Shown here: piece by piece, positions 42,055 to 64,000 of the stretch
Layout: each line of letters starts with the position of its first letter
Numbering within the stretch: the stretch's first letter is position 1
From: a virus
IMG/VR virus record: IMGVR_UViG_3300023213_000238
Reading direction: 5' to 3' (one strand)
Length of the DNA: 64,000 bases
Program-made: the position numbers and the translations under genes
Notes under the pieces: model-generated
What the model was told of the DNA's origin: nothing
The model's input: only the letters and a program-made list of their open reading frames with translations
The model's database searches: none

Positions 42055-42058
42055 TCTC

Positions 42059-42934
42059 ATGCTTCACTCTCTCATAGATGCCGGATTTCAGTTCGGATGC
42101 GTCGTCGCGGATCCTCCGTGGCGCTTCGACAACACGTCGACCCGCGGGGCCGCGGAGGATCATTACGAAACGCTCTCTCCTGAAGATCTCTTTGCGATGC
42201 CGGTCAAGCTGATTGCCGCGGAGAACGCGCATCTCTATCTCTGGACGACGGATAGTCATCTCCCGACGGCGCTGACAGTGATGATGGCCTGGGACTTTGA
42301 TTTCAAGCAAACGATCTCCTGGGTGAAGACAAAGGGTGCCTACCTACTCGAGATGCCGAAATTGCAGATCGGGCTTGGGAACTACTTTCGCCATTCGCAC
42401 GAGCTTTGCCTCTTTGGCGTTCGCGGTAAGGCGCCCGCGCGCGCGCACAATCTTCCCTCTGTAATTTTTGCCCCGCGTGGTCAGCACTCGGCGAAGCCAG
42501 AAACGCTTCAAGACTTCGCCGAGCAACTCTCGCCTGGTCCCTACTGTGAACTGTTCGCGCGGAGGCCGCGCGATCACTGGACGACCTGGGGCCGCGTCGA
42601 GGCAGGCAAACCACTTCTTAGCGTTACTGTTGGATCGGAGATAGCAATGGCAGAGCAGGAGAAAGTTGAGCCCGAAGGTCAGGTGGAAGAGTGGAAACCC
42701 GGCAAGGGATTCGAACAGGTCTCGCCAGCGTCAGAAGCGCCGAAGCGAGTACGTAGACCCCGCAAGAAGAAAGGTGCCGATGCTCAAACAGAGCAAAAAC
42801 CCGAGCCCGCCGCGCTCCGGATCATACGCCATCATCTCGATAGCGCTGCCGCAGTCGCTGTCACGCAGCGCGAGCCTGCGCCTGGTGAGTTCTACGAAGA
42901 GCGACCGCCAGGTCCGCCTGACGATCTTCCATGA
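42059..42934 (+). CDS. MT-A70 family N6-adenine methyltransferase with a charged C-terminal extension
   Basis: ADPPW, LYLWTT, WVKT, GNYFR..HELCLFG, HSAKP, ELFAR. Confidence 0.9.
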   Translation: MLHSLIDAGFQFGCVVADPPWRFDNTSTRGAAEDHYETLSPEDLFAMPVKLIAAENAHLYLWTTDSHLPTALTVMMAWDFDFKQTISWVKTKGAYLLEMPKLQIGLGNYFRHSHELCLFGVRGKAPARAHNLPSVIFAPRGQHSAKPETLQDFAEQLSPGPYCELFARRPRDHWTTWGRVEAGKPLLSVTVGSEIAMAEQEKVEPEGQVEEWKPGKGFEQVSPASEAPKRVRRPRKKKGADAQTEQKPEPAALRIIRHHLDSAAAVAVTQREPAPGEFYEERPPGPPDDLP

Positions 42935-45726: not shown

Positions 45727-46428
45727 ATGCAGAACTTTGAAAACACTCCGGACTTTTTCCAGGCGGCACCGCCCGACTGGTATCTGTCTAGATGCATCAC
45801 GGCGGAGCCTCACATTCGTGAGGGCAAAGCCTCGATGATTCACCTCGAATGGGAGATCATCGACACACGGTTCGCCGGACAACGGGCGCACCACTACATC
45901 ACGACCGATGGAAACGTGAAGGGCGGAGCTGCGATTTTTGCAAAGCAGTACCTTCGCGGACTCGGCGTCGACTTCAAAGTGACGCCGACGATCGTCGATG
46001 CAGAACTCTGTCAGGCGCTTCTCGGACGCGAGTATTTCGTCAAGTACGCGAACGACCGGCAGATGTCCGAGGACTCGAGCGGCAAGTACACCATCCCGGT
46101 GACCGCGCTCGATTACGATACGGGCAAGGAAGTTGAACTGAAGAAGCTCGTCGTTACCGGCTACATGTCGCAGGGTCTCTTTGCGAAGCGTCCAGCCGGC
46201 AATGGCGCGCAGACGGGCAAATCCGTGAGCGGTAGCACTGGCGCTCAAGGAGCAACCGCAAGCGGCTCACCTGTGCAGGGTTCGACCGGCGCACTGCCGT
46301 CAAACCCGGCGGGCTACCCGACGCTTGGTGGCGCTCCCGCAGGACAGCAAGCAATCTCGCCGGCTGTTGCAGCGGCAGCCGTAGCTGGCGCGCCCGCGAA
46401 CGGCCGACCTCCGTTCCTCCGCGACTAA
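45727..46428 (+). CDS. ssDNA-binding-like protein (DUF669-like) with low-complexity tail
   Basis: APPDWY..MIHLEWEII..LGV..LLGR pattern; AAGGAAG SD. Confidence 0.55.
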   Translation: MQNFENTPDFFQAAPPDWYLSRCITAEPHIREGKASMIHLEWEIIDTRFAGQRAHHYITTDGNVKGGAAIFAKQYLRGLGVDFKVTPTIVDAELCQALLGREYFVKYANDRQMSEDSSGKYTIPVTALDYDTGKEVELKKLVVTGYMSQGLFAKRPAGNGAQTGKSVSGSTGAQGATASGSPVQGSTGALPSNPAGYPTLGGAPAGQQAISPAVAAAAVAGAPANGRPPFLRD

Positions 46429-46441
46429 CCAGAGCAGTTCG

Positions 46442-46672
46442 ATGGATGAGCACGCGACCGATAGAGCCGAGGCAGAACTCGCACCTCTGTCGGTCGCGCA
46501 GGCTCTCCGTCTAATACAAGAGGAGCTGACCGAGCTTCTTGTGTTTGCAGCAGGTCATCTCGGTCCGCGCGAAAGTCACACGCGCATCATGTCGAAAATT
46601 TCCGCTGCTCTTGATAGAGTGAAGGCGCTTCGAAAGGCCTACGATGAAGCCAGAGACCCACCTACCGATTGA
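46442..46672 (+). CDS. hypothetical helical protein
   Basis: 76-aa ORF. Confidence 0.45.
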   Translation: MDEHATDRAEAELAPLSVAQALRLIQEELTELLVFAAGHLGPRESHTRIMSKISAALDRVKALRKAYDEARDPPTD

Positions 46673-46788
46673 TCCGGATCTTGTCTTCCGCGCATTCATG
46701 CTATTCTGGGCTTTGCTTTTCTTGGTTTGCATCATTTCGATCGTATTCGGAGTCGTTCGCGTAATCAAAAATTGGTTGGAGAACCGAC

Positions 46789-47358
46789 GTGGCGTATGAT
46801 CCGATCGAGGCCGGAGCGCTCTGCAAGAAGTGTCCATTGTGGCAAACGACGACACCGGTCCCGCCTCGCGGCAAAGAGGATGCCGAGGTCGTGATCGTCG
46901 GTGAAGGACCGGGCTACCAAGAGGTCAAATTCGGCAAGCCGTTCATCGGACCGAGCGGGATCCTGCTCGATGAGATCCTTGAAGAGAACGGCTTCGCCAG
47001 ATCACGTTGCTTCATCACGAATGCGATCCTTTGCAGGGCCGAAATCCCCGATGCGCGAGGCAAAGACAAGTTCGACTTCAAGAGCTACATGACGTGGCTC
47101 GGCAAGGAAAACAGCCGGCGCAAGAAATCAGCGAAGGCGAACGGACAGCAGTATGTGCCGCTCAACTCTCCGATCGACTGCTGCGCTCCTCGTCTTTGGG
47201 CGGAGCTTGACTACTTCGAGAGGCGTGCGGTAGAACGCGGGCAGCCTAACGGTGCCGTGGTCCTGGCACTCGGCAACACCGCGCTGAAGGCAGTCGCAGG
47301 ACGCGAAGGAATCATGAAGTGGCGAGGAAGTCCAATCCCGATTGAGAGGAAAGCCTGA
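46789..47358 (+). CDS. family 4 uracil-DNA glycosylase-like domain, N-terminal part (lacks the HP motif)
   Basis: CKKC, GEGPG..E, FIGPSG, TNAILC, CC..RL, VLALGNTA, KWRG then stop. Confidence 0.85.
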   Translation: MAYDPIEAGALCKKCPLWQTTTPVPPRGKEDAEVVIVGEGPGYQEVKFGKPFIGPSGILLDEILEENGFARSRCFITNAILCRAEIPDARGKDKFDFKSYMTWLGKENSRRKKSAKANGQQYVPLNSPIDCCAPRLWAELDYFERRAVERGQPNGAVVLALGNTALKAVAGREGIMKWRGSPIPIERKA

Positions 47359-48392
47359 TGGCGCGCATCGGAGAATGGGCGGTCAAGGTCACGGTTCCGG
47401 CCTCTGGCCGAGTGATCGCGTACTCGAAGAGTCTAACCCGCGCCGGGGCTCTTGACCTGGCCCGCGAGTTCAGTGTAGAAGGGGCTCGTGATCGGGCCGG
47501 GGAAATCCATCCGCCTGCCAGAGTTCTCATCACGATCGGCAAGGAGGACATCTTGGGAGACGCCAGATGAATGATGAATCGGCACCCGGTCGGATCCTGT
47601 GGATCAATCGCGAAGGGACAGTACGCCTTATTGAGGTGATGAAGGACGACCGCAATTACGTCATAGGCCAGCTTATCTTTGAGTATGTCGCTGATCACGA
47701 TGCGCTGGGACAACTCTGTTGGCACAGAGTGCTTACGGTTCCAGATCGTGTTGAATTTCACATCGCTGTAGCGATGCGCAACATGCTAGCGACTCTCAAG
47801 GATGCCGGTAGGAGCTTCGCGCCGTGAGCTTCGAACAGTTCACCTTCGTGCGCGGTTGGATCGAGGAGAAGCGCCGCGCACTCGAGTACGAGCTGCACAT
47901 TCTCGGCCTGATCGAGAAGGTGCTAGATGAGAAATCGACAGCGCCGGGATTCTACATAATGCCAAGCGCTGCCTACGATCACGTCTATGGACGCTTCGAT
48001 CGCGACAAACAGGTCCTTGCGTGGTTCTTCGCCGATGAAACACAAGGTGAGCATGGGCCTTTCGCAACGGAGATCGATGCGAAATTTGCACTCGAGCACT
48101 ACTGCAAAGAGAGCCTAGGAACCTAATGGGAACGAAACAAAATCCTGGTGCCTTCGACTGCTACGTGAAGGCGAAGCCAGACGAACCGATGTTCATTCTG
48201 CTCGCACGGGATCCCATCGCTCCGCTGCTAGTCAGGCTATGGGCCGTAATAGCGACGCTGCCCGAATACCATTGCGAAATCAGCACCGAGAAGTATCAAG
48301 AGGCTCTCGCGTGTGCCGATGCGATGGAAACCTGGCGTTTGATCCAGATGATCAAACGGGATTCGACGACGAAGGATCTAGGCAATGAGTGA
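47358..48392 (+). CDS. four small coupled hypothetical genes (47358-47570, 47567-47827, 47824-48126, 48126-48392)
   Basis: Stop/start overlaps; the last has KAKPDEPMFILLARD. Confidence 0.55.
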
Positions 48393-48981
48393 GCAAATAC
48401 CGCAACCGCGCTTCCAGTGCGATCAGTGGGTGGTTGTTTCAGTCAAGTCTCCCTACGGTCCCGCCTGGTCCCGGTGCCTTAAAGATCTCAACCACGAAGG
48501 AAAATGTGAACCTGGCCAATCGGCTCATGACAATTCGGGTGATCGAGTCAAGGAGACGAACCCGAAAGATGCTGTCGGGATCGCGAAGGTTCCTTTCTCG
48601 ACTGTTCCTGCACAGGTCGTTGCAGAGGTCGGCCTTGCGATGCTCGAGGGTGCCAGGAAATATGGCCGGTATAATTACCGCGTTGCCGGCGTCAAAGCAT
48701 CCGTCTACTACGACGGGAACTTTCGACACATGACAGGTTGGTGGGAAGGTCAGGATATCGATCCTGATAGCGGCCTCAATCACATCACCAAAGCGATCGC
48801 CGATCTTACCGTCCTTCGCGACGCCATGATCAATGGCTTGTGGGTAGATGACCGGCCGCCGAAGGTGAAAGACCAGGATTGGATCGCCAAGCTCAACCTA
48901 GATGCCAAAGGGATTATCGAGCGGTATCCGGATCCAAAAGAGCCCTTCACCGAGATCAACAAAGGAGATAGAAAGCCGTGA
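48385..48981 (+). CDS. dATP/dGTP diphosphohydrolase-like (DUF5664) protein
   Basis: NPKD..K..VP..GARKYG.YN..RH..W.G..D.DSGL.H..KA. Confidence 0.8.
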   Translation: MSEQIPQPRFQCDQWVVVSVKSPYGPAWSRCLKDLNHEGKCEPGQSAHDNSGDRVKETNPKDAVGIAKVPFSTVPAQVVAEVGLAMLEGARKYGRYNYRVAGVKASVYYDGNFRHMTGWWEGQDIDPDSGLNHITKAIADLTVLRDAMINGLWVDDRPPKVKDQDWIAKLNLDAKGIIERYPDPKEPFTEINKGDRKP

Positions 48982-49526
48982 GCTGCGTTCTTCAGCAGTG
49001 GGTGCAGAATCTCTCGTTCATGCAGCAGAGCGTGTTGCTTACTGCGATGCGCGGACCGGATGGCGTCGAGAAGAATCACGTCTCGAAGCTACTGATCCGC
49101 TGGCTTCGCCGATGCGTGCTCTACTCTGCTTTCGAATCGTTGCAGAACGGACAGCCCTACTTCTTCGTGACACCATATCGGACGGGTGGCGGGTCGTTCA
49201 CCGGACCTTCTTGCAACGATCCCGAGAAAGATAGCGGTCTGACTTGGGAAGTTCTCATGGACCGCGTACTTGAGCGGTACATGGAAAGTCTCGATGCTGT
49301 CCCGCATCACTTTCAGCTGCACTTCATGCACGCAGCTGAGATCATCGGGTACAAACACCCGACCACCACGATTTCGATCTGGTGGAGTCACGCCTATTAT
49401 CGGCTCGTGAGGGATATGCACCTGGAACCGGAAACGAAGGCCAAGATGGACAAGCGCCTCGGTGACATCGAGAAGAATTGGCGCGATGCTGAAGAGGTCA
49501 CAGCGAAAAACCCATGCCCGAAGTGA
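48978..49526 (+). CDS. hypothetical protein
   Basis: GTGA overlap; His-rich helix PHHFQLHFMHAAEIIGYKH. Confidence 0.6.
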   Translation: MSCVLQQWVQNLSFMQQSVLLTAMRGPDGVEKNHVSKLLIRWLRRCVLYSAFESLQNGQPYFFVTPYRTGGGSFTGPSCNDPEKDSGLTWEVLMDRVLERYMESLDAVPHHFQLHFMHAAEIIGYKHPTTTISIWWSHAYYRLVRDMHLEPETKAKMDKRLGDIEKNWRDAEEVTAKNPCPK

Positions 49527-49762
49527 CTGAAAAGATCGTTCTACCGGTTTGCTGGCCCTGCTTTCAGATGAAAGTAAAGGGTCGTCCTGTTTCAGCAGCG
49601 CCCGAGCCGGAGGATCCAGAGTATCCGGAATGGGCCAAGCTGTGGGTCGAATGGTTCAAACAACGAACGGCGGTATCGTCGCATCCGTGCCACTTCTGCC
49701 ACGCCTCGACGCGTACTTGCCTCTCATTCCGCTATGAAGCGCCTGCTACCATTCTCCCGTGA
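49514..49762 (+). CDS. small Cys-motif protein
   Basis: CWPC..CHFC. Confidence 0.4.
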   Translation: MPEVTEKIVLPVCWPCFQMKVKGRPVSAAPEPEDPEYPEWAKLWVEWFKQRTAVSSHPCHFCHASTRTCLSFRYEAPATILP

Positions 49763-51563
49763 CCTCGAGCTGCCGACCGCGGCAGTGACGCAGAAGTTCG
49801 CGATCCTCGGGACCTCCGGGCATGGCAAGACCTACTCCGCCATGCGTCTCGCCGAGCTGATGCTCGAGGTCAATGCGCAGGTTATCGCGCTGGATCCGGT
49901 CGGTCCGTGGTGGGGGCTTCGCGCGTCGGCGAGCGGTAAACGCGCCGGCTTTCCGATCACTGTCTTCGGCGGTGACCACGGCGATCTACCGCTAACGCCG
50001 GAGTCCGGCGCTCTCATCGCCGATGTCCTTGTCGATCGATCGATCTCTGCGGTTTTGGATATCTCGCAGTTCACTACTGCCGAGACGAAGCGGTTCGTTC
50101 GGGATTTCGCCGAACAGTTCTTCCAGCGCAAAAAGCGACCGGGCGGATCGTCGCCGGTTCATATCTTCTTCGAAGAGGCACAGACCTTCGCGCCTCAGAT
50201 GCCCGAGCGCGACGAGGGCGTGATGCTCAACCGCGTCGAGCGTCTACTGAAGATCGGCCGCAACTACGGAATCGGCTGGACTCTCATCTCCCAACAGCCA
50301 CAGGCAGTCCATAAGCGGTGCCTCAATCAAGCTGGTACCGTGATCGCAGTCGCGACGATCGGCAAGCATGAAAAGAAGGCGATCTTCGAATGGGTCAATG
50401 ACAAGGTGACCAAAGACGAAGATCTGAATCTGCTCGATAATCTTCCCTCCTTGGAGATCGGCAAGGCGCTTGTGTGGAGTCCAGCGTGGCTCCGCATTGC
50501 GCGGCTCGTTTACATCTCGAAGAAGATCACCTTCGATAGCTCGGCGACTCCCGAGTTCGGCGCGAAGGTCAAGGCGCCGAAGAAGCTCGCGCCGGTAGAC
50601 ATCAAGGCCCTCAAGGAAGCGATGAAAGGGCTTGTCGAGAAGGTTCAAACGGGTGATCCAGCCTGGCTACAGAAGCGGATCAGCGAGCTTGAAGCCGAGC
50701 TGTCACAGGCCAAGAAGCAAAAAGTTCAAGAAGTCGTCAAGGAGGTCTCGGTCTTGAAGGAACAACACGTCAAACGCCTCGAGAAGGCGATCGAGCGCAT
50801 GAAGAGTGTCGCCGCCGGCATCGACAAGGCAGCAGGCGACATCCAGTACGCGATTGGTTTCGCGCTCGGCAAGGAACCACTACGGCTGGAACGGCTAGTA
50901 AAGTCGAGTCCGCAGATACTTTCAGATTGGAACACGCCGGGGACCGCCGCACACCGAGCCATGATGATCGGCGAGATCCCGAAACCGCCACCCGAGTATC
51001 GCACCACAACGTCTGATGCTCTCAAAAAATCAGTCCATGCTCTAGCGGATCAATCCGAGAAACGCCAGAATGGTGCAGTCGCGATCAAGAAAGGCGCTCG
51101 CACCATGCTCATTGCCCTCTCGAGACGGCAGGGGATGTGGGTTAGCCGCAGCGCGCTCGGCGTTCTTGCCGGACTATCCTCGAAGAGCGGCACCTTCTCC
51201 TCCTACTTGTCAGCGCTGCGCAGCACCGGCCTCGTCTTGGAGCACAATGTCAATGCGGATCTCCAGATCTCGAAGGCCGGTCTCGAGTTCCTCGGGCCGC
51301 TGGCGCAGACGAAACCGGCTTCTACACAAGAGCTGATCGCCGTCTGGTCGCAGGCTATCAAGAAAGATGGCGCACGACGGATGCTTCACCGGCTTGTGGA
51401 ATGGTATCCGGTCTGGGCTCAGCGCGATTATCTCGGTTCAGCTACGAACATTTCATCGACGAGCGGTACGTTCTCAGCTTATTTATCGATCCTCCGGTCC
51501 GCCGGCCTGATCGAGGAGAAAGGTCAAGAGGTCAGAGCGAACCAAGCTCTCTTCATTTCCTGA
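49734..51563 (+). CDS. HerA/FtsK-like (DUF87) ATPase with coiled coil and two C-terminal wHTH-like repeats
   Basis: ILGTSGHGKT, LDPVG, FFEEAQ, GRNYG, ISQQP; SKSGTFSSYLSALR / STSGTFSAYLSILR repeat. Confidence 0.85.
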   Translation: MKRLLPFSRDLELPTAAVTQKFAILGTSGHGKTYSAMRLAELMLEVNAQVIALDPVGPWWGLRASASGKRAGFPITVFGGDHGDLPLTPESGALIADVLVDRSISAVLDISQFTTAETKRFVRDFAEQFFQRKKRPGGSSPVHIFFEEAQTFAPQMPERDEGVMLNRVERLLKIGRNYGIGWTLISQQPQAVHKRCLNQAGTVIAVATIGKHEKKAIFEWVNDKVTKDEDLNLLDNLPSLEIGKALVWSPAWLRIARLVYISKKITFDSSATPEFGAKVKAPKKLAPVDIKALKEAMKGLVEKVQTGDPAWLQKRISELEAELSQAKKQKVQEVVKEVSVLKEQHVKRLEKAIERMKSVAAGIDKAAGDIQYAIGFALGKEPLRLERLVKSSPQILSDWNTPGTAAHRAMMIGEIPKPPPEYRTTTSDALKKSVHALADQSEKRQNGAVAIKKGARTMLIALSRRQGMWVSRSALGVLAGLSSKSGTFSSYLSALRSTGLVLEHNVNADLQISKAGLEFLGPLAQTKPASTQELIAVWSQAIKKDGARRMLHRLVEWYPVWAQRDYLGSATNISSTSGTFSAYLSILRSAGLIEEKGQEVRANQALFIS

Positions 51564-52467
51564 TGGCACTCTCAGAAGACATCTACCGCCTCGCTTATCG
51601 GATCGACCGCGATGCAGAGATCATGTCGTATCCGGTTCTGCTCGAATCGGTTCACTGGCTCTGTCGCCAGGTCGCGCAGTTCAAAGAAACTAGCGAGCTA
51701 GAGCTGTTCAAGACTCGCGACAGGCTAATCCGCGAGAAGGCTCTCGACGAGGCAATCTTCGCGGTGCGGCGTGAAATCATTAACTGCGCCTGCATTCTCA
51801 AGATGGAAAAGGACTCCTGCGAGAGTTGCAAAGCGTGCGGCCGTCTTGAAGAGAAGCTCCTCGCGTTGCGCGATAGCATATCGGTCAGTAGATCGGAAGC
51901 CTGATGCTCATCTCGCGGTTCTCGGAAGCCGGCACCTCGACGCATTACCGCCGCTGCGATGTTGAGAAGAGCGGCGGATCATGCAACACGATCGCGCGTG
52001 CCCCGAACAAGCACGATTTGCCGGCCGGCTGGATCAGAACCGTTTACGGGATCGTGAATCCGACGGTCAATGATGTATGCCCGTCCTGTGGCGAGAAAGC
52101 TTTCGGGCTTGCCAAGCTCGACGAGAAAGGGTAGGTTCGCGCTATGGGCCTCATTCGCTACACGATCGATGCGGAGTGGGAATGCGACGGCTGCCGCAAG
52201 AACGAAACCGTCCACAGCGAAGGAAACCGCGACACCGGGGCGACGATTCAGCCGAAAGACTGGCATCAAAATCCGCGCTTCAATACAGCCGGTTGCTCCG
52301 ATAAGTGCTGGGGGCTTGTCGAAGCGGCAACGAATGAGGTGGTCAAAGAGGTTCAGATGCGCCTCGCCCCTGAGATTGAGCGCCGCTTGCGCGATGCTCT
52401 AAACGACCTTCAGGTCGTTCCGATCGAGGAACTCTTCACGAAGAAGGAACCGCCGAAGAAGAATTGA
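51563..52467 (+). CDS. three hypothetical genes (51563-51904, 51904-52134, 52144-52467), Cys-motif rich
   Basis: TGATG overlaps; CxxC motifs. Confidence 0.55.
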
Positions 52468-52468
52468 G

Positions 52469-53179
52469 ATGAGCAACGTCGATCAGCACAAGACGTGGTC
52501 ACAGACGGTCAGCGGGCTCGCTGTCTATCCGCTCAATCTCGATCCGGACTTGATCGATCTCCATGATATCGCCCACCACACTGCGCGGATCTGTCGCTTC
52601 CTCGGTGGCGTTGACGTCGACCTCTACAGCGTCGCCGAACATTGCGTTCGCGTCTCCTGGAGAGCCGAAGAGTTGACTCAAAAGAGATGGAAAGGCCAGG
52701 GTCCGTTTGTTGACGGCGCACGGATCGTCGAGCACATCAACTATAACGCTCGCTGGGGCCTCCTCCACGATGCGGCCGAATACGTACTCGGCGACATCGC
52801 GCGGCCGATTAAGGTTCAGCCCGGCTTCGATCCCTACCGGCTCATCTATGAACCGGATGTTCTAAAGAAGATCGTTGAGCGGTATGGCCTCGAGTGGCAG
52901 ATGCCTTCCTGTGTCCACCAGGCCGACTATGAGCTTTGCTCGACGGAAGCTCTCGAGCTGAAGGCGCCAGTGCTGCGCGCATGGCGCGAGCGAATGGTCG
53001 GAGTCGAAAAACCGCTACCGAAAAGTAGCTTCATCCGCCAAAATATGGGATGGTCCGCACGCGTGGCGGAGCGGCGGTACCTCGAAAGGTTCTTTCAACT
53101 CTGGCCAAAAGAAACCTATCGATCGGTGCGAGCACGAAAGGGTTCGCGACGGAGAAGCAAATGCAAGATCATGAAGTGA
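52469..53179 (+). CDS. HD-domain 5'-deoxynucleotidase (YfbR/DatZ-like)
   Basis: IAHH..ICRF.G, YSVAEHC, LLHDAAE..GDI..P.K, ADY. Confidence 0.85.
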   Translation: MSNVDQHKTWSQTVSGLAVYPLNLDPDLIDLHDIAHHTARICRFLGGVDVDLYSVAEHCVRVSWRAEELTQKRWKGQGPFVDGARIVEHINYNARWGLLHDAAEYVLGDIARPIKVQPGFDPYRLIYEPDVLKKIVERYGLEWQMPSCVHQADYELCSTEALELKAPVLRAWRERMVGVEKPLPKSSFIRQNMGWSARVAERRYLERFFQLWPKETYRSVRARKGSRRRSKCKIMK

Positions 53180-53232
53180 GCAGTGGAAGTGGACCTCACT
53201 GGGCGAAAAAGGATCTAGCGCAAGAAGCGACT

Positions 53233-53678
53233 ATGTCGCTGCTTACATCCATCATCACGGGTACGCTCATAGCGATCTTCAGCGGAGGAATTGCCGCTGT
53301 CGCACTCAGTCCGTGGATCGACATCTCCTGGTGGCGTGCTGCGCTTCTCGTGATCGCATTTCGTGTCTCTACCGGGAAAGCATAATGCTACTGTTCGCCA
53401 GCCTCTGCGTCACCGGGGGCCTTACCTATGGGCTCTGCCTTGCGATCATTTTTGTACTCAATGCGAGTAGAATCAAAAAGCATCAGAAAGACGCGGTGGA
53501 GCGGTTCATGCGCCAGCTTGATGAGGCCTCACATCCGAATGGATATCCGGTAACCGCGCGGATCGTGACCACCGAGATGGCGGATCGGTTTCTCGCCGAC
53601 TTTTTCAACCCGCCATCTGAATCGAAGCCGAAACCACCGAAGATGAGCCGGCAAGGGCCGTTGAAGCTTATCCCGTGA
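53233..53678 (+). CDS. two small membrane proteins (53233-53385, 53385-53678)
   Basis: Hydrophobic N-termini; TAATG overlap. Confidence 0.5.
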
Positions 53679-53679
53679 T

Positions 53680-55170
53680 ATGACAGCCCCCTGGCAAGAA
53701 CGGCGTTACCGGCGTCTGCAAATAGTTCTTGCGAAGACCGCAGGCAAAATGAAGGATCCAGAACCTATGAGCAAAGCGAAACCCGCCGCAGTAGCACCAG
53801 CACCCGAGAAGCCAAAGCTTAAAATACTCGGAGATCAGCCACCGCCGTGCCGGCATGCGGAGGCAGTCATCGTGACCAAGTTGCAAGATGGTACGATCTT
53901 CCGCCGCCTCGTTCCGGGGCATAGCTGCATCTATGTCGACCGACGCAATGCACTGATTCCTGCGGCCGAACGATTGGCGAACAAGCAGGTCGCCAAGATC
54001 GCTCCGAAATTCATGGAGCGGCCCGCGGCGCACCCGTCGTGGACTAAGCTCTTCCTCGCTGCAATGGATCAGCTCTGGGCGGAGGCGAATACCTCACTCC
54101 CGCCCGACGGCGGAGGCAATGGCGCACCAGCTCTGCCTGGTTCTGTCCGCTACGCGCTCGACCAGATCGAGCGCCGACAGCTTCAGTGAACTCGAGCAAA
54201 GACAGGACCGTGGAGATCGAGGCGTATTGCCTCCATGCGACTGATGCAGCGCTTCTCGTTGAAGTCGACGGCGAGGAGATCTGGATACCAAAGAGTCAAA
54301 TAGACCTATCGGTGTCCGAGGTAACAGGCGTAGGAGATCGTGGAACCTTGGTGATAACGCGATGGATCGCACAGAAGAAAAACCTAATCTGACTCCTTGG
54401 CTCTGGATCAAGGCGAGAGGCTTCAAAGGCCATTTCTGCACGACCGAGCTTCGTGACAGCCTCACAGTCGAGTTGCTCGGGCGCAGCGTCTCTGACGCGC
54501 TACTTGATGTCAGAATCGTTGAGGAGGCCTGTATCGACCTCGGCGGGATGTGGTGGATGGGTAACACGCACCAACGAATCGAGATCGGCAACATGGTTAT
54601 CGCTGTGCCGACGCGCGACTTCGAGGGCGTTCTCCACGAGTTGCGCGAAGCTCCCGTCCGTTACTTTCAGAACGATCAGCCGTACTACAAGGTTCACGGA
54701 TACTGGGACTGCGTCGTTCTGACATCAGCGCAAAAAACAACTCTCCTTGCCGCGATGGTCGAGATGTTGCCGACCGTTCGCGTCACGGCGAAGGAAGAGG
54801 ATGAAGGATTCGGCCAGAGCCTCAAGCTGGCCAACAAGAACCACGAGGTGACGTTCATCTCGCGGCGTGATCCAGAATCGATCAAGAAGGCGAAGGCGGA
54901 GGGCATTATCCAGGTGCAACCAATCTCCGGCACCGTGAACGGCGAGAAGAACTAATGCCCCAGGCCAGCCAAACGCTCCGCGAGAACATCATCCGTCGAT
55001 TCGGAGACCTCGACACACGTGGCCCGATAGCGTTCCTCGCGAACGCTGGCTATTCTATCGACGAAAATTTTTTCATCGTCACCGACAAAAACCGCGCGTT
55101 AACCGCTGACGAGGAAGAGTGCGTCCGGTTTCTGATTGATGAGTGGGATTTCTCTTGGAGAGACTTTTAA
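53680..55170 (+). CDS. four hypothetical genes (53680-54189, 54186-54392, 54362-54955, 54955-55170)
   Basis: Coupled ORFs; the second is a small beta protein with TDAALLV..WIPKSQI. Confidence 0.55.
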
Positions 55171-55805
55171 TGGCGTATGACGCAGAGTTCTATCGGCTCT
55201 ATCAGGAGTACCTCGCTGAGCCGCACGTCAAAGAGGCGCATCGTCGCGCCTTACGGCTACTCCATTTTCCCGTTTCCCGTCTACTCGAGCTTGGATCTGG
55301 CGGGAAAAACAGTCCGGAATCTCTCCGGCATTTCAAACTCAACCATCTCTCGATGGGAATTCACTACGTCGGGATCGACGTCAACGCGGAGAATACGAGA
55401 TCTTTCGTGTTTGATAGCGAACTCATATTCATTCAAGGCGACTACAGAGACATAGAGTTCTGGCATCGAACAGTCAAAAAGTTCGAGCTGAACAAGTTCG
55501 ACACGTTCTTTAGTCTCTTTTCCACCGAGATCACCGCTCCTGTATCTCAGAATTACTCGCTCTATCGATCTCTCTTCAGAGAGACTGACCTCCGGCAGGG
55601 CCTCGTCTCCGGCTTCTACTACTCGGACAAGCTAGATCAGAATCCGATCGAGGAGGCCGGCGGGATCACGAGCTATCAAACGCTCGAGCCGATCGAGAGC
55701 GACCGCTGCCCCGAATTCACCGAGACTCGCCTGATCATGCACGTTCCATCGAAACTCTTCGGAAAGAACGTCTACGAGGTATGGAAGCTCTTTCTCAGAA
55801 GGTGA
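55170..55805 (+). CDS. class I SAM-dependent methyltransferase-like protein
   Basis: LLELGSG, YVGIDVN, IQGD, FDTFFS; start moved to ATG 55170 (TAATG overlap). Confidence 0.6.
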   Translation: MAYDAEFYRLYQEYLAEPHVKEAHRRALRLLHFPVSRLLELGSGGKNSPESLRHFKLNHLSMGIHYVGIDVNAENTRSFVFDSELIFIQGDYRDIEFWHRTVKKFELNKFDTFFSLFSTEITAPVSQNYSLYRSLFRETDLRQGLVSGFYYSDKLDQNPIEEAGGITSYQTLEPIESDRCPEFTETRLIMHVPSKLFGKNVYEVWKLFLRR

Positions 55806-56044
55806 ACCCGGCCTGCCCGCGCTGCGGTGGTGAGCTGGAGCTGAGCCGGCCCGGTCCGCTGCCGCAGTGAATCGAATACGCGTGTCGCAGTTGCGACTTC
55901 TGGTGGGCAGCGAATACGAACACAACCTTCGAGGAGGCAATCGAGTATGAGCGGAGCCATAAGATTTCTAACTTTCAATCGACGCACGAAATCGCATCAC
56001 AAGCGAAAGCGCCGGAATCGGCGATGGAAGAGCGACGCATATAG
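55802..56044 (+). pseudogene. zinc-ribbon ORF interrupted by an in-frame TGA at 55868
   Basis: MNPACPRCGG..PLPQ*IEYACRSCDFWW; GTGA overlap at the start. Confidence 0.4.
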
Positions 56045-56231
56045 GTTCGCGCATCCAGGTCCTCAAGTCAGTTTTCATCTCTCGCCTACCGAATTGAGGC
56101 TTCTCAGTCAGTACCGAAAGAGGTTGGAGATCTACTTGCACAGGCGCGTCTCTCGCGAAGCGGCACTGAACGATCTTATTCGCTTTGGAAGCCGCGTTCT
56201 GATAGATATGAAGCTGATCCATGACCCATGA
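55947..56231 (+). CDS. basic protein with RHH-like C-terminus
   Basis: GAGGAGG SD; VSFHLSPTELRLL..SREAALNDLIR. Confidence 0.55.
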   Translation: MSGAIRFLTFNRRTKSHHKRKRRNRRWKSDAYRFAHPGPQVSFHLSPTELRLLSQYRKRLEIYLHRRVSREAALNDLIRFGSRVLIDMKLIHDP

Positions 56232-58306
56232 TCGTCGTCCCGACCCTCCACCCAGCTGCGATCCTCCGCGGTGAGGGCGAAGATAAAGGTCTCGTTCGCT
56301 TCCGTCTAACCGTCTCGGGAGACGTTCACCGCGCAATCGAGTACCTCCGGCGCAAGCCTCAGTGGGATGAGGCGGTCATCTGGGAGCGGGATGAACACGG
56401 CCGGCTCAAGAACCTCTTCCCAACGCTCGAGGAAGTCCGCCAGTTCTGCGTCGGAGCTTGGCGCGGGGAGATCTACGCCGATATCGAGACGACGGGCGAG
56501 GAGCCGCTAAACTGCAAGATCCTCTGCATCGGGATGTGCGATCAGAACGGCCGCGCGATCTGCGTCCCATTCCTGAAGAAGGGCGGAGCACCCTACTGGA
56601 AGCCCGAGGAAGAGAAGCAGGTAGTCTCTTGGATCGGTTGGCTCTTCAAGGATATAGAAACGCTGAAGGTCGCGCATAACGGCGTCAACTTCGATGGCGT
56701 AGTTCTGACTCCGTTCGGAATGCCGATTCTCGGCCCCGTCGACGATACGATGCAAATGTCGCACGTCCAAGACGGCGAGATGCCGCATAAGCTCGCGTTT
56801 GTTGGATCGACGCGGACCGAGGTTCCTTACTACAAGGACGATGTCAAGGGCAAAGCAGCGTGGATCGACATTGATGAGGTGGATCTGCGCAGCTACAACT
56901 TGCGAGATTGCCTGACTACGCGAGCGATCCGAAAGCCGCTCCTTGATAAGCTCCGCGAACTCGGTCTCGGGGGTCTCTACCATGAGGAGATGCAGGTCTG
57001 CCGCATCATGGCGCGAGCGAGCTTGCGCGGGATCACGGTCGATCGAAAGAAACGCGACGAGAACTTCCAGTTCTACCGCACGGCGGCCGATAAGGCGCTC
57101 GGGTCGCTATGCGCGATCGCCGAGAATCCAGAATTCAATCCGCGCTCGCATCCGCAACTCGTCGAGGTCCTGTTCGATCGGCTGAAATTCCCGGTCGTCA
57201 GACGGTCGAAAAAGACTGAAGGTCCGTCAACGGACAAGAACGCGATGGTGCTCCTGGCAATTCACGCAGAGCGCCCTGAGCAGGTCCAGTTCTTAGTCAA
57301 TCTGATCTCCTACCGCAAGAACGACAAGATGGCGACGTGGATCGACTCGATGCCGATTCTGCCCGACGGGCGCGTGCATGCCCAGTGGAATCACCTGCCG
57401 GTTACCGGGCGCCTCTCCAGCTCGCCCAACATGCAGAACTGGAACAAGAAGATCAAGTCGATGTTCATGGCCGGTCCCGGCATGCGGATCGTTTCGGTTG
57501 ACCTCTCGCAGGCCGAGCTGCGCGCCGAGGCCTACTTCGCATTCGATCAAGAATTTCTCCGCATGTACCGGCTCGGCGTCAACGCGCATACTGCGAACAC
57601 GACATTGCTCTTTGGCGTCCGCTGCGCGAATCCGAACGATACCAACCCGGCAACCGAGGAGTATTTGCGGGAGGCGTGTCGCAAGTACCGCAGCTGCGAA
57701 TTAGAATCGCTGCCGCTCGCAGTGAGCAAGGACAAGTGGAAGCAGTTCAGAACGCTGGCCAAGATCGCGATCTTCACTTGGTTCTATGGCGGACTGCCGC
57801 AGACGCAGCTCCAACAACTAGGCAGCAAACGGGATCCAGATACAGATGAGCTACTCTTCCCGAAGCTGACCCTGCGTGACATGGAATCGTTTAACGCAAT
57901 GGCGGCGCTTCTACACCCGGACATCGTAGCGTATCAGGATCGGCTCGTTGCACAGGTGAAAGGCCAGGGCTATTACCGCTGTCCTCTCTCAGGCCGAATG
58001 ATCTGGTTCCGTGCCGGATTCGGCCGTAACAAGATTCTTGACTATCCGAATCAGATGCTGGTAGCTTCCCGCGTGAACAAAGGCATGATTGCGATCGATG
58101 AGAAACTACGGCGGTACTGCCCTGGTGCGGTCATTGTCCAGCAGGTCCACGACTGCCTAAACGTCGAGACGCCAGAGGAGCATATCAAGACGGTCGGAGA
58201 GATCCTCTATGAGGAGTTCCAGCGGCCGTTCGCGCTGCCTGGATTCGAACAGGCGCTGCTTCCCGCCGAGCCGGCAACGAACGGGATCTACTTCCATGAG
58301 GTCTAG
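56228..58306 (+). CDS. family A DNA polymerase with 3'-5' exonuclease and the C-terminal fragment of the UDG domain
   Basis: MIVVPTLHPAAILR; ExoI DIETTG, ExoII HNGVNFD, ExoIII YNLRD; TGRLSS.PNMQN, DLSQAELR, R..AK..F..YG, VHD. Confidence 0.92.
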   Translation: MIVVPTLHPAAILRGEGEDKGLVRFRLTVSGDVHRAIEYLRRKPQWDEAVIWERDEHGRLKNLFPTLEEVRQFCVGAWRGEIYADIETTGEEPLNCKILCIGMCDQNGRAICVPFLKKGGAPYWKPEEEKQVVSWIGWLFKDIETLKVAHNGVNFDGVVLTPFGMPILGPVDDTMQMSHVQDGEMPHKLAFVGSTRTEVPYYKDDVKGKAAWIDIDEVDLRSYNLRDCLTTRAIRKPLLDKLRELGLGGLYHEEMQVCRIMARASLRGITVDRKKRDENFQFYRTAADKALGSLCAIAENPEFNPRSHPQLVEVLFDRLKFPVVRRSKKTEGPSTDKNAMVLLAIHAERPEQVQFLVNLISYRKNDKMATWIDSMPILPDGRVHAQWNHLPVTGRLSSSPNMQNWNKKIKSMFMAGPGMRIVSVDLSQAELRAEAYFAFDQEFLRMYRLGVNAHTANTTLLFGVRCANPNDTNPATEEYLREACRKYRSCELESLPLAVSKDKWKQFRTLAKIAIFTWFYGGLPQTQLQQLGSKRDPDTDELLFPKLTLRDMESFNAMAALLHPDIVAYQDRLVAQVKGQGYYRCPLSGRMIWFRAGFGRNKILDYPNQMLVASRVNKGMIAIDEKLRRYCPGAVIVQQVHDCLNVETPEEHIKTVGEILYEEFQRPFALPGFEQALLPAEPATNGIYFHEV

Positions 58307-58307
58307 C

Positions 58308-58610
58308 ATGAGCGACAACATCATTCCTTTCAAAGGTCCGCCGATAGAGCCAGATTGGTACACCGATTTCAGGCATGCAGTCTATTTCATCGCCGGTCAT
58401 TACGCGGCTGAACAGGTTCGAGAGGTGCAAAAGCATGCAACCTGGAGCGGCAGAAGTCTCTCAGCAGATGAGATTGCAACCATCTTTCGCGCTGAAGCAA
58501 AATTCATGGTCGAAAAAATAAGCAAGACAGCAAAAGTTTCAGCGACCGGAGAGCAGGCGAAGCCCAAGGTGCTAGTCGTATACTCTGACACGTCGGTAGA
58601 GGCGAAGTAG
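58308..58610 (+). CDS. hypothetical protein
   Basis: MSDNIIPF start directly after the polymerase stop. Confidence 0.55.
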   Translation: MSDNIIPFKGPPIEPDWYTDFRHAVYFIAGHYAAEQVREVQKHATWSGRSLSADEIATIFRAEAKFMVEKISKTAKVSATGEQAKPKVLVVYSDTSVEAK

Positions 58611-58676
58611 CCGCGCGTTATGCCGACTGCGATCATATCAACGGGATAGTGGACTGGGGCGGCTTTCCGGTCGCTG

Positions 58677-58967
58677 GTGTTGCAAATGATGACGGATGAA
58701 GAGGCACGTCGACTCGCGCATGGTGCCGAACACGACAAAGGATGGACAAGTATGAGTATTGAGTTCGAAGGTAGAATCTACTGCAAGTGTGGATGGGCCT
58801 ATTTGGTGCTCAAGAGCGAGATCATATCGGATAGTCAAGGATCTCGTCGCAGCCGAATCTTTTCAAAGGACTTCGTCTGTACGAGCTGTGGCGAGCTGCT
58901 AGTCGCCTTCAAGGCACCGGAGGATCCGGCGGACGTGGAACCCATTGCTGATCTGTGCCTGGTGTAG
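58677..58967 (+). CDS. small Cys-motif protein
   Basis: CKCG..CTSCG. Confidence 0.5.
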   Translation: MLQMMTDEEARRLAHGAEHDKGWTSMSIEFEGRIYCKCGWAYLVLKSEIISDSQGSRRSRIFSKDFVCTSCGELLVAFKAPEDPADVEPIADLCLV

Positions 58968-59535
58968 CTTCGCGTAGCGAGCAGTCGTCGCAAACCTGAA
59001 GCGATAAAACCGGGTGCAGCTCGATCCCGTTCGGAGCGGCGCCCTTCTGACCGCGCGGTTTATCCCAGAATCCTACGCCCGTGATCTTGAGACGTCGAGG
59101 GATTGCGATCTCGATGTACTTGGCTGATACCGGCTCTCCGATCATATAGGCGAATTGGAAGCGAACCGTTTCGATCTGAGACTGAAAGACCTCAGTCGTT
59201 TTCTTCTTCGTGCATTTCGGGTCGACAATCTCGATGATCATCGTAGCGCCTGAAGCTCCCTGGACGACGACGTGATAGTCGCTATCGGCTTCGAGCTTGT
59301 AGCCAATCACGTCCGCCGTGACCTCGTAAACGAATTTCTCGACGAGATCTCTTCTCATCTTCGGGCGCCACCGCCGCGGTAGTGTCATCGAAGTCAGCTC
59401 CTCGACCGTCATCGGGATCGGGTCAAGGTCGATCTTCCGAGCAGCTCTGTCTGACAGATTCTTGATCCAGGCGCGCTCGACCGCGCACTCGGGTGCTGAT
59501 ACTAGCGCGAAGCTCAGCATGACTGCTGCGATCAT
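58909..59535 (-). CDS. exported protein, OB-fold-like
   Basis: Signal peptide MIAAVMLSFALVSA; CAVERAWIK, EADSDYHVV, ITGVGFWD, IELHPVL. Confidence 0.6.
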   Translation of the reverse strand: MIAAVMLSFALVSAPECAVERAWIKNLSDRAARKIDLDPIPMTVEELTSMTLPRRWRPKMRRDLVEKFVYEVTADVIGYKLEADSDYHVVVQGASGATMIIEIVDPKCTKKKTTEVFQSQIETVRFQFAYMIGEPVSAKYIEIAIPRRLKITGVGFWDKPRGQKGAAPNGIELHPVLSLQVCDDCSLREATPGTDQQWVPRPPDPPVP

Positions 59536-60014
59536 TTCTCGAAACCTCCGAGGTTGACTCTCCACTCGATCGAGAGCGTCGAGGCCGGCGTACAGACGAC
59601 CCTAAACGTATCCGTGAACGGAAGTGGTTCAGCGAAACTGTAATCGCGTCGCCCATACCCGGCCGAACCAAAGATCACGCGATCCGTGATGAGCTTTGCT
59701 CCAGGCGGGTTCTCGAGGCTTAAAATACCGAGCTGAACCGGATTGGCATTGCCAGGAAGGGTTGTCTGGACGGCCTGAAACCCGAGATAGACAAGGTAGA
59801 AGGTCTTGCCGACCGGTACCACATGAGACAGAATGGCCTGGTCGACGGTCAAAGTGGTCGTCGTTAGAACCGCAGTCAACATGACGCGGTTCACAGCCTG
59901 CTCTACGAGAGTCGTCTCGAGGCGACCATCGGCGCCGACACGAACCAGAATCGTATCGCCCGTCGGAGAGGTTCCCCACAGCTCGACGGGCTGATGTGGA
60001 GCTGAACGCGACAA
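59532..60014 (-). CDS. beta-rich hypothetical (virion-like) protein
   Basis: TTG start; beta-strand pattern. Confidence 0.5.
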   Translation of the reverse strand: MSRSAPHQPVELWGTSPTGDTILVRVGADGRLETTLVEQAVNRVMLTAVLTTTTLTVDQAILSHVVPVGKTFYLVYLGFQAVQTTLPGNANPVQLGILSLENPPGAKLITDRVIFGSAGYGRRDYSFAEPLPFTDTFRVVCTPASTLSIEWRVNLGGFEK

Positions 60015-60056
60015 AAGAGCCCCACTCTACCGCAAAGTAAAGCGGTAAACGAGCCC

Positions 60057-60857
60057 TCAGTATTCGTTCAAGAACTGCTCGATATCGCGATGAGTCAGGT
60101 GAACGTACCGCAGCGTGGTCTGCATGCTGCGATGGCGCGCGGCCTTCTGAATGTCGAAAGCGTCGGCACCACGCCGGGCCAGCTTCGTAACGAAGGCGTG
60201 CCGAAGCATGTGGGGTCGCAATGACACATCGAGGCGCGCCTTTCGGCCGAGCTGGCGGATCATTCGATGCAGTAGATGGTACTGCGTAATGTAGCTCTTC
60301 GGCGAGAGGATTTCGCCGGCAACTGACCAGGCCAGTCCCTTCATGAGGATTATCCCGCGGCCGGGGGCTCTGGGCGCTTCGAGAAGCTCTTCAAGCAGCC
60401 TGAGGCACTTTGTCACCGTGACGAGTTCCTCTCTGTTCCCCTTGCCGAGCACCACCAGTTCGCCCGTTTTGAGCGCCCGCTGGACAGCTCGCCGAGTCAG
60501 CTTGAGCAACTCCTCGGCTCGAAGACCGATCGCCAATGGCAATAGTGCGAGTGCTCTTTTCCCGGCGGGAAGCCCGCGCGCCGCTCTCTCGTAGGCCGCT
60601 AGCTCCTCATCGCTCGGTATTTGGAGCACTCGCGAAATGGTCTTGGTCGCCGGCAATGCGCGGTCGATCCAGGTGCCGTCCGACCCATCCTCGCGGTGGG
60701 CTCGAGCTACAGCTGCGCGAAGGGCCGCCTTACAGCTTTCAGGCCAGTCACGGACAGAACGGGTTACCTGGCCAAAAGGCGGAGTTGTACGGCCGAAAGC
60801 CCTCTCCAGCATCCGGCCGTATTGCTGGACCGTTCTCGGTGCCAGCGCGCGAAGCAT
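60057..60857 (-). CDS. tyrosine recombinase/integrase (XerC/D-like)
   Basis: GLRAEE (R), VLGKG (K), HMLRH (HxxR), HRSMQTTLRY (H..Y). Confidence 0.92.
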   Translation of the reverse strand: MLRALAPRTVQQYGRMLERAFGRTTPPFGQVTRSVRDWPESCKAALRAAVARAHREDGSDGTWIDRALPATKTISRVLQIPSDEELAAYERAARGLPAGKRALALLPLAIGLRAEELLKLTRRAVQRALKTGELVVLGKGNREELVTVTKCLRLLEELLEAPRAPGRGIILMKGLAWSVAGEILSPKSYITQYHLLHRMIRQLGRKARLDVSLRPHMLRHAFVTKLARRGADAFDIQKAARHRSMQTTLRYVHLTHRDIEQFLNEY

Positions 60858-60860
60858 GGG

Positions 60861-61343
60861 CTATCGCCGCCTGCGACGGCGCCCCGAGCTACGACGACGA
60901 CCCCCTCGACGTTTCCCTCCCCCTCCCCCACTGAGAACGAGATAGGCACCGCCCGCGATCGCGGCAGCCGCAGCAAGACCAAGACCAGCAGCGCTAGGAC
61001 CAGGCGCAGAAGGGCCTGCTGGAGCGGCAGCAGCCGGCCTCCTGGCGAAGATCGTCATCGGCTCCATCGTTATAGTGGGTGCCGGCGGCGCCGAGTCCGT
61101 AGGGCCAAATAGCTGCTCTGGCGTCATACCGGCCGCTGCAATTATCTTCTGGAGAGCCGCAGCGGTTGCAGGACCGTAGATCCCGTCTGAAGTGAGGCCG
61201 GCGCCCGTCTGAAAATTCCTGACCGCGGAAGCCGTTGCTGGCCCATACTGACCATCGACACCAGTCGGGTAACCCGCCGTATTCAACATCTGCTGTAGAG
61301 CCGACACCTCGGGACCGCTGGAACCCTGTCGTAGTAGTGCCAT
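60861..61343 (-). CDS. peptidoglycan-binding domain protein with TM and Arg-rich tail
   Basis: LRQGSSGPEVSALQQML..VDGQYGPAT..AVRNFQ..DGIYGPAT; TM; RRSSGRRRRRR. Confidence 0.85.
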   Translation of the reverse strand: MALLRQGSSGPEVSALQQMLNTAGYPTGVDGQYGPATASAVRNFQTGAGLTSDGIYGPATAAALQKIIAAAGMTPEQLFGPTDSAPPAPTITMEPMTIFARRPAAAAPAGPSAPGPSAAGLGLAAAAAIAGGAYLVLSGGGGGKRRGGRRRSSGRRRRRR

Positions 61344-61496
61344 GCCAATAGGCTTAATGACAAAGCCTCGGCAATGCACGAAAACGCCGGCCTTGGCGCC
61401 TCACCTAGCGACCCCCGGACCGGCGCAGAGGGGTGAGAGGAAAACCGGCAGACGATCGGAAGCTGAAGCTATGCAACCGCCTACCGGAGCGCCGAT

Positions 61497-63098
61497 TTAC
61501 GAGGGACGAACCTCTGCGGGCGGAGCCGGCGGCTGCCGCCAGGTCGGATCGGGGATGGCAAGGCGAGTCACCGTTGGTGGTGATATTACCACGCGAGACG
61601 CTCTCCAGGCCTTGAACTCCTTCCAATACCCGCGCAGCGCATCGATCGCCCACGCCGTGCAGACCAGGCTGAACGCGATCTCTCCATAGAGACTGATTCC
61701 TTTGATGATGTTCATGGTTTCACCCTTCGGTTTTGAGCTTGAAACGGAGCGGGACGATAGATACCGGTCCGAGCGGAAACGGTTGTTCCTGCGGTTCCTT
61801 GTCGAGGTTCTTGATGCGGGGGAACAGTCTGGAGTCGTTATAGCAGGCCTCCCCCATGTGGATCAGCGCGGCCGAGATGGCTCGGCGTGCTGCCTCTGAT
61901 CTCGTAGAGCCGCTCGTGGTAATCCCGTTTGCGTACTTGTTGCCACTGATGCGCGCTACCCAAGGTACCGGTGCGCGCTCTTCTAGCTTCCATGTTTCCA
62001 GTTGCAGTGTGATCATCGTCGCCTCGCTTTCCTTTTCGCGGCAACCTCGGCCTTGACAACCTTCTCTAACACGAATGCCGCAAGCCAAGAGAGTGGTACG
62101 GAGTACACACGTCGCCGCCGCCGTGGGCGGACCAAGAACAGGCCGAGCTTCCGGTCAATCGTTACGGTAGCTTCCCGCTCCCCGTCAAATCCGCCATGAA
62201 CTCGGAAGTTTGCGAACCGGCGTTGCTTTTTTTGACCCGCCGGTTTTTCTGTGCCATCCTCCACAATGCGGGGGGATCCATTCATAGATTCAGTCTTTGA
62301 CTGCCTGGCGCCCATCACCTTGTCGGCGTAGGCGATCAGGTCTTCAACCGAGTCGCTCATCGCTGTGCCCACTCCTTCTTATTGAGAACGCGAACGACCT
62401 CGCGCACAGCGTCATCGAACGCTGCTGTTGGGTACGAGCCGGTGCCGATCGTCAGCCCGTTATCGGTCATGATGGAGCAGTCCCATGCCACGCCGTCGAA
62501 CGAGAATTCGATCGAATGTACGATCTCATCTTTGATGGAGATCTTCATCGGGTTGCCCTCGGTAGGTTGTTCGGCTTCCGGCGCTTCTTGAAGCGGCCGA
62601 GCAGCTCGTTGGCATCGAAGCGCGGGCCAAGCCGGTCGAACGAAGCCAGCTCGATCAGAGCATCCTGGAGCGCATACGTTGAGATCGTGCTGCGCATCCA
62701 GCGAGATGCCGGAATCGCCAGCTTCGCGATCTTCTCCAACGCCTCCAGGTACTGCTCACTGACCAAGATCTGACGATTCTCCTTCATGAGATCACTCCTT
62801 TGAAGGCCTCGGGTAGTTCCTTCGCGAGTCTGGCACGGAAATCGAGATAGTAACCTGTCCAAACCGAGAGGGCGATGTTCACACAGCGCTTCGTTTCATC
62901 GAGACGGGAGGCGTTCAACTTTTGGATTTCGCCAACGTGCTCAGCGTAGGCGCGCACGTACTGAGCGCGGAGTTCCTCGCCGCGCATCATGAGATTGCAG
63001 AACTTGTTGTTCTCTTCTTGCAACGCCTTGATTCGTTGCTCGAGTTCCATGACGAGATTTCTCAACTCGATGTTGGCTGCGTCTAAATGTTCGATCAC
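61497..63098 (-). CDS. six small coupled hypothetical genes (61497-61715, 61720-62016, 62013-62360, 62357-62548, 62545-62787, 62784-63098)
   Basis: Starts set by ATGA/GTGA overlaps; early-region-like. Confidence 0.5.
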
Positions 63099-63733: not shown

Positions 63734-63778
63734 GTGCTTTGCTCCTTTGAAGTGGGTTTTCCAGTCCCACTGTGATTG

Positions 63779-63994: not shown

Positions 63995-64000
63995 CGTTCT

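Follow-up and report, generated by a model that had tools for sequence, protein, structure and literature searches.

The question raised by this locus is how a uracil-DNA glycosylase (UDG) of the kind that some phages fuse to a family A DNA polymerase (PolA) comes to be encoded in two pieces with almost 9 kb of other genes between them. The locus lies in a 64,000-nucleotide (nt) stretch of viral DNA (IMG/VR record IMGVR_UViG_3300023213_000238), the whole of which is hereafter called the window. In it, a 189-amino-acid (aa) fragment of a family-4 UDG, termed UDG-N, is encoded at 46789..47358 on the plus strand, and a PolA of 692 aa at 56228..58306 on the same strand. A preliminary description, made from the letters of the window, had noted that the first gene carries family-4 UDG motifs but stops before the final P.HP motif and that the polymerase gene opens with the missing piece, and it had left the choice between a natural heterodimer and an insertion that is removed by excision or splicing. 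Our analysis makes it quite probable that a UDG-PolA fusion underwent an ancient fission within its UDG domain, and that the two products act as a non-covalent heterodimer in which the polymerase gives the catalytic His. Five observations carry this explanation: the two genes tile a single fold, the cut point is conserved, both genes co-occur, the split forms have a single origin, and signatures of splicing or excision are absent. The physical assembly of UDG-N with PolA would follow from structure prediction, and we infer that the split enzyme has glycosylase activity.

The UDG-N gene begins with a GTG codon that has a GGAG 7 nt upstream (5'). Its product matches the Pfam UDG domain (PF03167, E value 3.8e-18) over profile positions 1-101 of 141 and, in the PDB, the family-4 UDGs 4zbx, 1l9g, and 1ui0 (E ~1e-16), with an alignment that spans residues 17-148 of Thermotoga maritima UDG (1l9g). 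We found a CxxC motif, GEGPG at residues 38-42, F52, N78, C82, CC131/132, and an RGS motif, 8 residues past which the protein ends. More specifically, UDG-N has strands beta1 to beta3 only and is without beta4, the C-terminal helix, and the His-Pro (HP) motif, the last of which the preliminary description had already found missing. AlphaFold2 (AF2) modeling of UDG-N alone gave three strands at a predicted local distance difference test score (pLDDT) of 90, with a low-confidence tail at residues 171-189, and a Foldseek search with this model returned UdgX and family-4 UDGs as top matches (E 5e-9, probability 1.0). The single-chain UDG-PolA structure 9qhs was matched both in sequence and in fold. 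Homologues of UDG-N form ~36 clusters (181-231 aa, 44-68% identity) with variable tails that end a few residues past RGS; E39, F52, and N78 are each kept in at least 90% of these 36 homologues, and C12, C15, C82, and C131/C132 are invariant or nearly so. Family-4 UDGs bind a 4Fe-4S cluster through a CxxC near the N terminus, a Cys after the TN motif, and a fourth Cys. We take C12, C15, C82, and C131/132 to be the iron-sulfur (Fe-S) ligands, in line with established knowledge of the Thermus thermophilus UDG, so that cluster binding is putative here. By its fold, motif A, Phe, and Asn, UDG-N can be assigned from its sequence to the family-4 (UdgA-type, Fe-S) UDGs; it does not form a complete family-4 domain by itself, because motif B (the HP motif) and the C-terminal helix are found not on the polypeptide that carries motif A but in PolA residues 1-45.

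The N-terminal sequence of PolA is MIVVPTLHPAAILR. Its first ~45 codons (56228..56362, plus strand), which we term the UDG-C tag, encode beta4 (IVVPTL), the HP motif (H8-P9), and the C-terminal UDG helix (residues ~22-39), and they are followed by a 3'-5' exonuclease domain and a polymerase domain. When a profile of PolA residues 1-60 was compared with the whole PDB, it matched residues 156-190 of 192 in 1l9g (E 3e-4) and almost nothing else. UDG-N covers residues 17-148 of the same structure and the tag residues 156-190, so that one UDG fold is tiled by the two genes, which confirms that PolA opens with the missing UDG piece. The ATG of PolA overlaps the stop codon of the preceding gene (ATGA) and an in-frame TGA lies two codons 5' of it, so that there is no longer PolA reading frame. 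The tag residues H8, P9, and R14 are kept in at least 90% of 53 PolA sequences. As for the remainder of the protein, it matches PF00476 (E 2.4e-32), and the residues of the exonuclease motifs (D85/E87, N151/D156, and Y223/D227) and of the polymerase motifs (D425, R508/K512/Y520, and H641/D642) are invariant across 46 family members. By Exo I-III and polymerase motifs A, B, and C, the PolA of the window can be classed as a family A polymerase with proofreading; the exonuclease-associated PF01612 matches most PolA homologues and was unreported for the window's own PolA at E<0.01. In the AF2 model of PolA alone (pLDDT 92), residues 1-8 are coil and the tag helix is packed. What is fused to the exonuclease and polymerase domains is thus not a whole UDG domain, only its last ~45 residues, and the same is true of all ~80 members of the clade to which this polymerase belongs.

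These relatives came from a search of 5.8 billion proteins, from which we took clusters that cover the whole polymerase. The ~80 PolA clusters obtained (37-64% identity at full polymerase coverage) begin, bar a few truncated entries, with M-x-x-V-P-T-L-H-P-A-x-L-L-R, and the Pfam UDG domain was found in none of them, the longer members carrying inteins or inserts. Six such members of ~980-1025 aa (P0046, P0048, P0056, P0075, P0079, and P0082) have intein and HNH domains (PF14890, PF13392, and PF07591) inside the polymerase part; mobile elements therefore invade the PolA gene of the split clade, but not at the UDG break. The same cut is accordingly seen in ~80 PolA and ~36 N-piece clusters. All 11 contigs with enough upstream flank carry both halves on one strand with UDG-N first, and the gap between them measures 204 (L010), 211 (L008), 1278 (L009), 1529 (L171), 1788 (L007), 2853 (L172), 3094 (L001), 3732 (L005), 5518 (L003), 6268 (L004), and 8869 bp, the last and widest being that of this window. 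The interval ranges from one 71-aa gene up to 19 genes, and the closest relative of UDG-N (68% identity) extends >9.3 kb downstream without reaching PolA. In every relative, UDG-N has its own stop after a variable tail of 5-40 aa, and PolA has its own ATG. The minimal form of the interval is that of L010 (9794-10000), where UDG-N and PolA are in the same frame with one stop codon and 68 open codons between them, and where the gap is filled by a 71-aa Cys-containing gene in another frame that has a homologue in L008. Stop-codon read-through was considered for L010 and rejected, because this gene, homologous to that of L008, occupies another frame there.

We observed mean column identities of 48% for the tag, 44% for UDG-N, and 41% for the whole polymerase, which means that tag and UDG-N are at least as conserved as the polymerase as a whole. 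All 11 pairs retain the Fe-S cysteines, the RGS motif, and the strands. Among these pairs, the catalytic His of the tag was lost (to S, P, or A) in three of the five lineages without the N-piece Asn, and in none of the six with it, a co-loss that is suggestive only as a sign of functional coupling. In five relatives (L009, L171, L172, L008, and L010), UDG catalytic residues have been lost on one or both halves while the cysteines and both genes were kept; the changes seen there are motif A to LDQPS or ADAPS, Asn to Ser, and His to Ser, Pro, or Ala. Such degenerate sites, by analogy, argue that docking has a value of its own. The window's copy retains every catalytic residue, and an active enzyme is plausible here for that reason.

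Structure prediction of the two pieces together, as the preliminary description had proposed, pointed in the same direction. The complex model of UDG-N with PolA residues 1-60 reached an interface score (interaction prediction score from aligned errors, ipSAE) of 0.89 in three runs, versus 0.00 for the best of three controls. Of 80 solved complexes, 58 attained this score, as did 2 of 110 mismatched pairs; these counts are only rough for the UDG-N/PolA complex, as custom alignments were used. The predicted interface joins UDG-N beta3 (152-163), its tail (178-187), and active-site segments to PolA residues 1-13 and 26-44, at the canonical place of the fourth UDG strand and the last helix. The model thus supports complementation by strand and helix. 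Three points weigh against the heterodimer. The score of the complex could stem in part from single-chain UDG folds that the predictor has learned, and would then show likeness and not binding; the co-loss of Asn and His was counted over 11 phylogenetically non-independent pairs, with a Fisher p of ~0.06; and L008 and L010 keep the His despite a degenerate N-piece active site, which means that the coupling is not strict.

The polymerase tree bears on the origin of the cut. A quick maximum-likelihood tree was inferred from an alignment of 692 columns that held 33 split forms, 18 fused forms, and 8 Pol I sequences; every second clade row of 650-800 aa was sampled, and fragments and intein-bearing rows were excluded. 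The split forms make up one clade (Shimodaira-Hasegawa-like approximate likelihood-ratio test [SH-aLRT] 100) nested among the fused UDG-PolAs, and split and fused forms together make up one clade (SH-aLRT 100) against Pol I, which served as outgroup. As judged from these sequences, the split polymerase descends from within the UDG-PolA lineages. Distant relatives (24-31% identity) taken for comparison from IMG/VR and the protein database have both parts in one open reading frame (ORF), except for three loci that are cut elsewhere in the polymerase. These three distant UDG-PolAs from IMG/VR (L030, L056, and L057) are broken after the exonuclease domain or within the polymerase domain, in different or overlapping ORFs, and the breaks are either independent fissions or frameshifts. 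Alignment to the fused forms places the cut of the split clade in the loop that connects the RG motif to the HP strand and that measures ~15 to ~100 aa in fused proteins. Read most simply, these data would mean that a fused ancestor was split once, in a permissive loop, and that genes were then gained and lost repeatedly at the break.

The sequence of events that we propose would run as follows. A cut arose in a surface loop inside the family-4 UDG domain of an ancestral fusion. On one side of it, UDG-N kept all core strands but the fourth, together with motif A, the Fe-S cysteines, and the Phe and Asn of the uracil pocket; on the other, PolA kept a 45-residue tag with that fourth strand, the catalytic His-Pro motif, and the final UDG helix. 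The tag strand would join beside UDG-N beta3 and the tag helix would pack on UDG-N, such that a complete UDG fold is rebuilt non-covalently. The rebuilt UDG would be docked on the exonuclease/polymerase body, like that of the single-chain SPO1-like and SP15-like UDG-PolAs, and would scan the template ahead of the polymerase active site. Because the motif B His is supplied by the polymerase, the active site would be composite, and uracil excision, if retained, would occur only on the assembled polymerase. Accessory genes may since have come and gone repeatedly in the stretch that separates the halves, a hotspot that has grown to 8.9 kb in this window. A bolder version of this scheme holds that the glycosylase is dead until the polymerase donates the His-Pro strand, that excision is thereby licensed only in the replicating complex, and that the break has been kept in ~80 clusters as a landing pad for accessory genes; we advance it tentatively, as an idea slightly more apt to fail than to hold in all its parts.

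A different account would have the halves no longer cooperating, with UDG-N an independent Fe-S DNA-binding protein or a crippled glycosylase and the HP strand a relic that serves the polymerase fold. Each half does model confidently by itself, UDG-N compactly and PolA with its tag helix packed; the active site is degenerate in some lineages; and phage metagenomes commonly contain UDGs that are encoded in trans to polymerases (PMC13697223). We nonetheless regard this account as unlikely, given that the tag is conserved like the rest of PolA with H8-P9 in at least 90% of sequences, that both genes stand on every contig with enough flank, that no lineage has lost the His while keeping the N-piece Asn, that the complex model passes its controls, and that a UDG fold without its fourth strand and last helix would leave core surface exposed. 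An artefact or decay, be it misassembly or a recently broken pseudogene, strikes us as hardly credible, even for a contig assembled from a metagenome. The same arrangement is seen in a second contig (JGI sample 3300023212), which shows 100% identity to window positions 46228-64000, and the split architecture recurs on 10 further contigs, which come from different samples and from JGI, NCBI, Logan, and IMG/VR. Both halves are intact ORFs with conserved catalytic residues, and the decaying split that the preliminary description had allowed for is rejected.

The heterodimer must also be weighed against the possibility that the 8.9-kb interval is an intervening element, which the tyrosine recombinase, RNA splicing, or intein trans-splicing would remove to restore a single UDG-PolA; we consider it extremely improbable. 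A tyrosine recombinase gene (266 aa, 60057..60857, minus strand; PF00589, E 4.5e-18), which the preliminary description had named as a candidate for excision, does lie 1.75 kb 3' of the PolA stop, and polymerases of some clade members carry inteins elsewhere. The recombinase gene is, however, on the opposite strand and beyond the interval, and PF00589-domain genes are likewise found several kb downstream of PolA in the relatives L002 and L008. The junctions are without direct or inverted repeats, the only repeats detected being short, at chance level, and not at 47.35k/56.23k. We thus rejected a recombinase-excised element of the skin or nifD-element type. We likewise rejected a group I or group II intron, as Rfam gave no match to an intron or any other RNA family at E<=0.1 within 46000-58500. 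A "fractured gene" with a split intein was rejected as well: neither UDG-N nor PolA has an intein Pfam domain, nor is there room for one, the tail of UDG-N past RGS being 8 aa and PolA opening directly with the UDG strand. The lack of intein residues and clear flanking repeats reported beforehand was thus upheld. Moreover, every relative gives UDG-N its own stop and PolA its own ATG; the interval differs between relatives in length (0.2-8.9 kb) and content; and in this window it holds a 609-aa HerA-like ATPase and nucleotide-metabolism genes. Of the two alternatives left by the preliminary description, removal of an insertion therefore finds no footing, and the natural heterodimer is supported by the conserved cut, the co-occurrence of the genes, their single clade, the conserved and co-lost catalytic residues, and the complex model.

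The interval itself (47358..56231, plus strand; a gap of 8869 bp) contains 19 co-directional genes, as called on the identical contig L006, close to the "about 20" estimated earlier, and most are of unknown function. Three received an annotation. The first is a protein with the N-terminal domain of a dATP/dGTP diphosphohydrolase (MazZ-like; 48385..48981, plus strand; PF18909, E 7.7e-22; phrog_801 and phrog_2252), and another is a deoxyribonucleoside 5'-monophosphate phosphatase-like protein (52469..53179, plus strand; phrog_318, E 1.8e-35). Between them lies the gene of the 609-aa HerA/FtsK-like ATPase (49734..51563, plus strand; PF05872 and PF01935, E ~1e-6), which has a partial match to phrog_2666 "terminase large subunit" (E 2.7e-12); the protein may serve as a non-canonical packaging ATPase. 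A protein of similar size (611 aa; L170, 5618-7453) is encoded in the interval of the closest relative. An MT-A70 gene lies upstream of UDG-N in this window (42038-42934); an MT-A70 methylase and a MazG-like gene recur in the intervals of some relatives, the other content of which is largely unrelated. Consistently, no homologue of the window's interval ORFs was found at E<1e-4 in the intervals of eight relatives, and no third gene is conserved immediately 5' of PolA across relatives. Among the interval ORFs searched, there was no Pfam or PHROG endonuclease match, and promoter-like and terminator-like sites in the interval were not above those of shuffled sequence. The interval is a variable accessory-gene zone and not a mobile element with recognisable ends. 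Near the split, relatives carry MazG-like, ThyX, dCMP deaminase, and ribonucleotide reductase genes; together with the MazZ-like and phosphatase-like genes of the window, they suggest that the nucleotide pool is manipulated and that the DNA may be modified.

As to the virus, a megablast search with positions 38-62 kb gave no match among cultured phages, for which the best tblastn identity was <30%, and the clade has no cultured relative in INPHARED. Single-protein scans of IMG/VR returned no match; of the 80 loci given by a profile scan, one (L010) belongs to the clade. A scan of GTDB genomes gave distant PolAs only, with no prophage copy and no clue to the host. In the presumed structural and accessory module of the window (1-37810, minus strand), the 14 large ORFs tested had no convincing PHROG or Pfam match. 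The clade, whose contigs measure 57-110 kb, seems to be a virus lineage not yet charted.

Should the bolder version of the scheme hold, no PolA-associated domain that divides its fold and catalytic residues between two gene products would have been described before. A clade-wide fission inside a UDG would amount to natural protein-fragment complementation; our full-text literature searches found no description of a fission inside the UDG domain. It would also offer a genetic handle by which the docking role of the UDG module can be separated from its catalytic role. An internal break in an essential replication gene can evidently persist while up to 9 kb of accessory genes accumulate in it. 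For annotation, the locus carries a warning, in that split polymerases are labelled "PolA without UDG" and the N-pieces "uracil-DNA glycosylase," when neither is complete.

The nearest known systems are the UDG-PolA fusions that carry catalytic UDG residues, i.e., those of the SPO1-like and SP15-like phages (YerA41, phiLo, and PDB 9qhs; Czernecki et al. 2023, PMC10201439; Missoury et al. 2026, PMC13697223). In cryo-electron microscopy structures of the YerA41 and phiLo polymerases, the UDG contacts the template in front of the active site, where it excises deoxyuridine (dU), and the coupling of uracil recognition to replication in UDG-PolAs has only recently been demonstrated (PMC13697223). 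As in these fusions, a family-4 UDG with its catalytic residues stands N-terminal to exonuclease and polymerase domains; unlike in them, ~185 UDG residues form a separate gene product, the last ~45 are fused, and the two genes lie 0.2-8.9 kb apart. The split clade has 24-31% identity to any fused UDG-PolA. By analogy, the split enzyme probably works like the single-chain fusions, recognising template dU ahead of the active site. In the N4-like UDG-PolAs (cluster 17 of PMC10201439), the UDG domain is inactivated. The split-clade members L008, L009, and L172 resemble these in having lost motif A, Phe, Asn, and/or His with the fold kept, a parallel to a structural or processivity role, whereas the window's copy has all catalytic residues and the N4-like enzymes are single-chain.

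Two further systems share the division of a replication gene. In "fractured genes," split inteins flank a homing endonuclease gene between the halves (Dassa et al. 2009, PMC2677866). The present locus is alike in that a replication gene is in two pieces with foreign genes between them; it differs in having no intein fragments at the junction and no endonuclease match among the interval ORFs searched, and reassembly must therefore be non-covalent. The other system is the exonuclease|polymerase fission of the T7-like cyanophages (S-SBP1 group), reported as the first split PolA; this cut between domains is the only PolA gene fission described so far (PMC10201439). In both cases, a phage PolA has undergone an inherited split into two separately translated proteins, for which reassembly is predicted, and the new termini lie in a surface loop. 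The S-SBP1-group cut runs between domains and its genes are adjacent, whereas the cut described here passes inside a catalytic domain, divides the active-site residues between two gene products, and has up to 19 genes between its halves.

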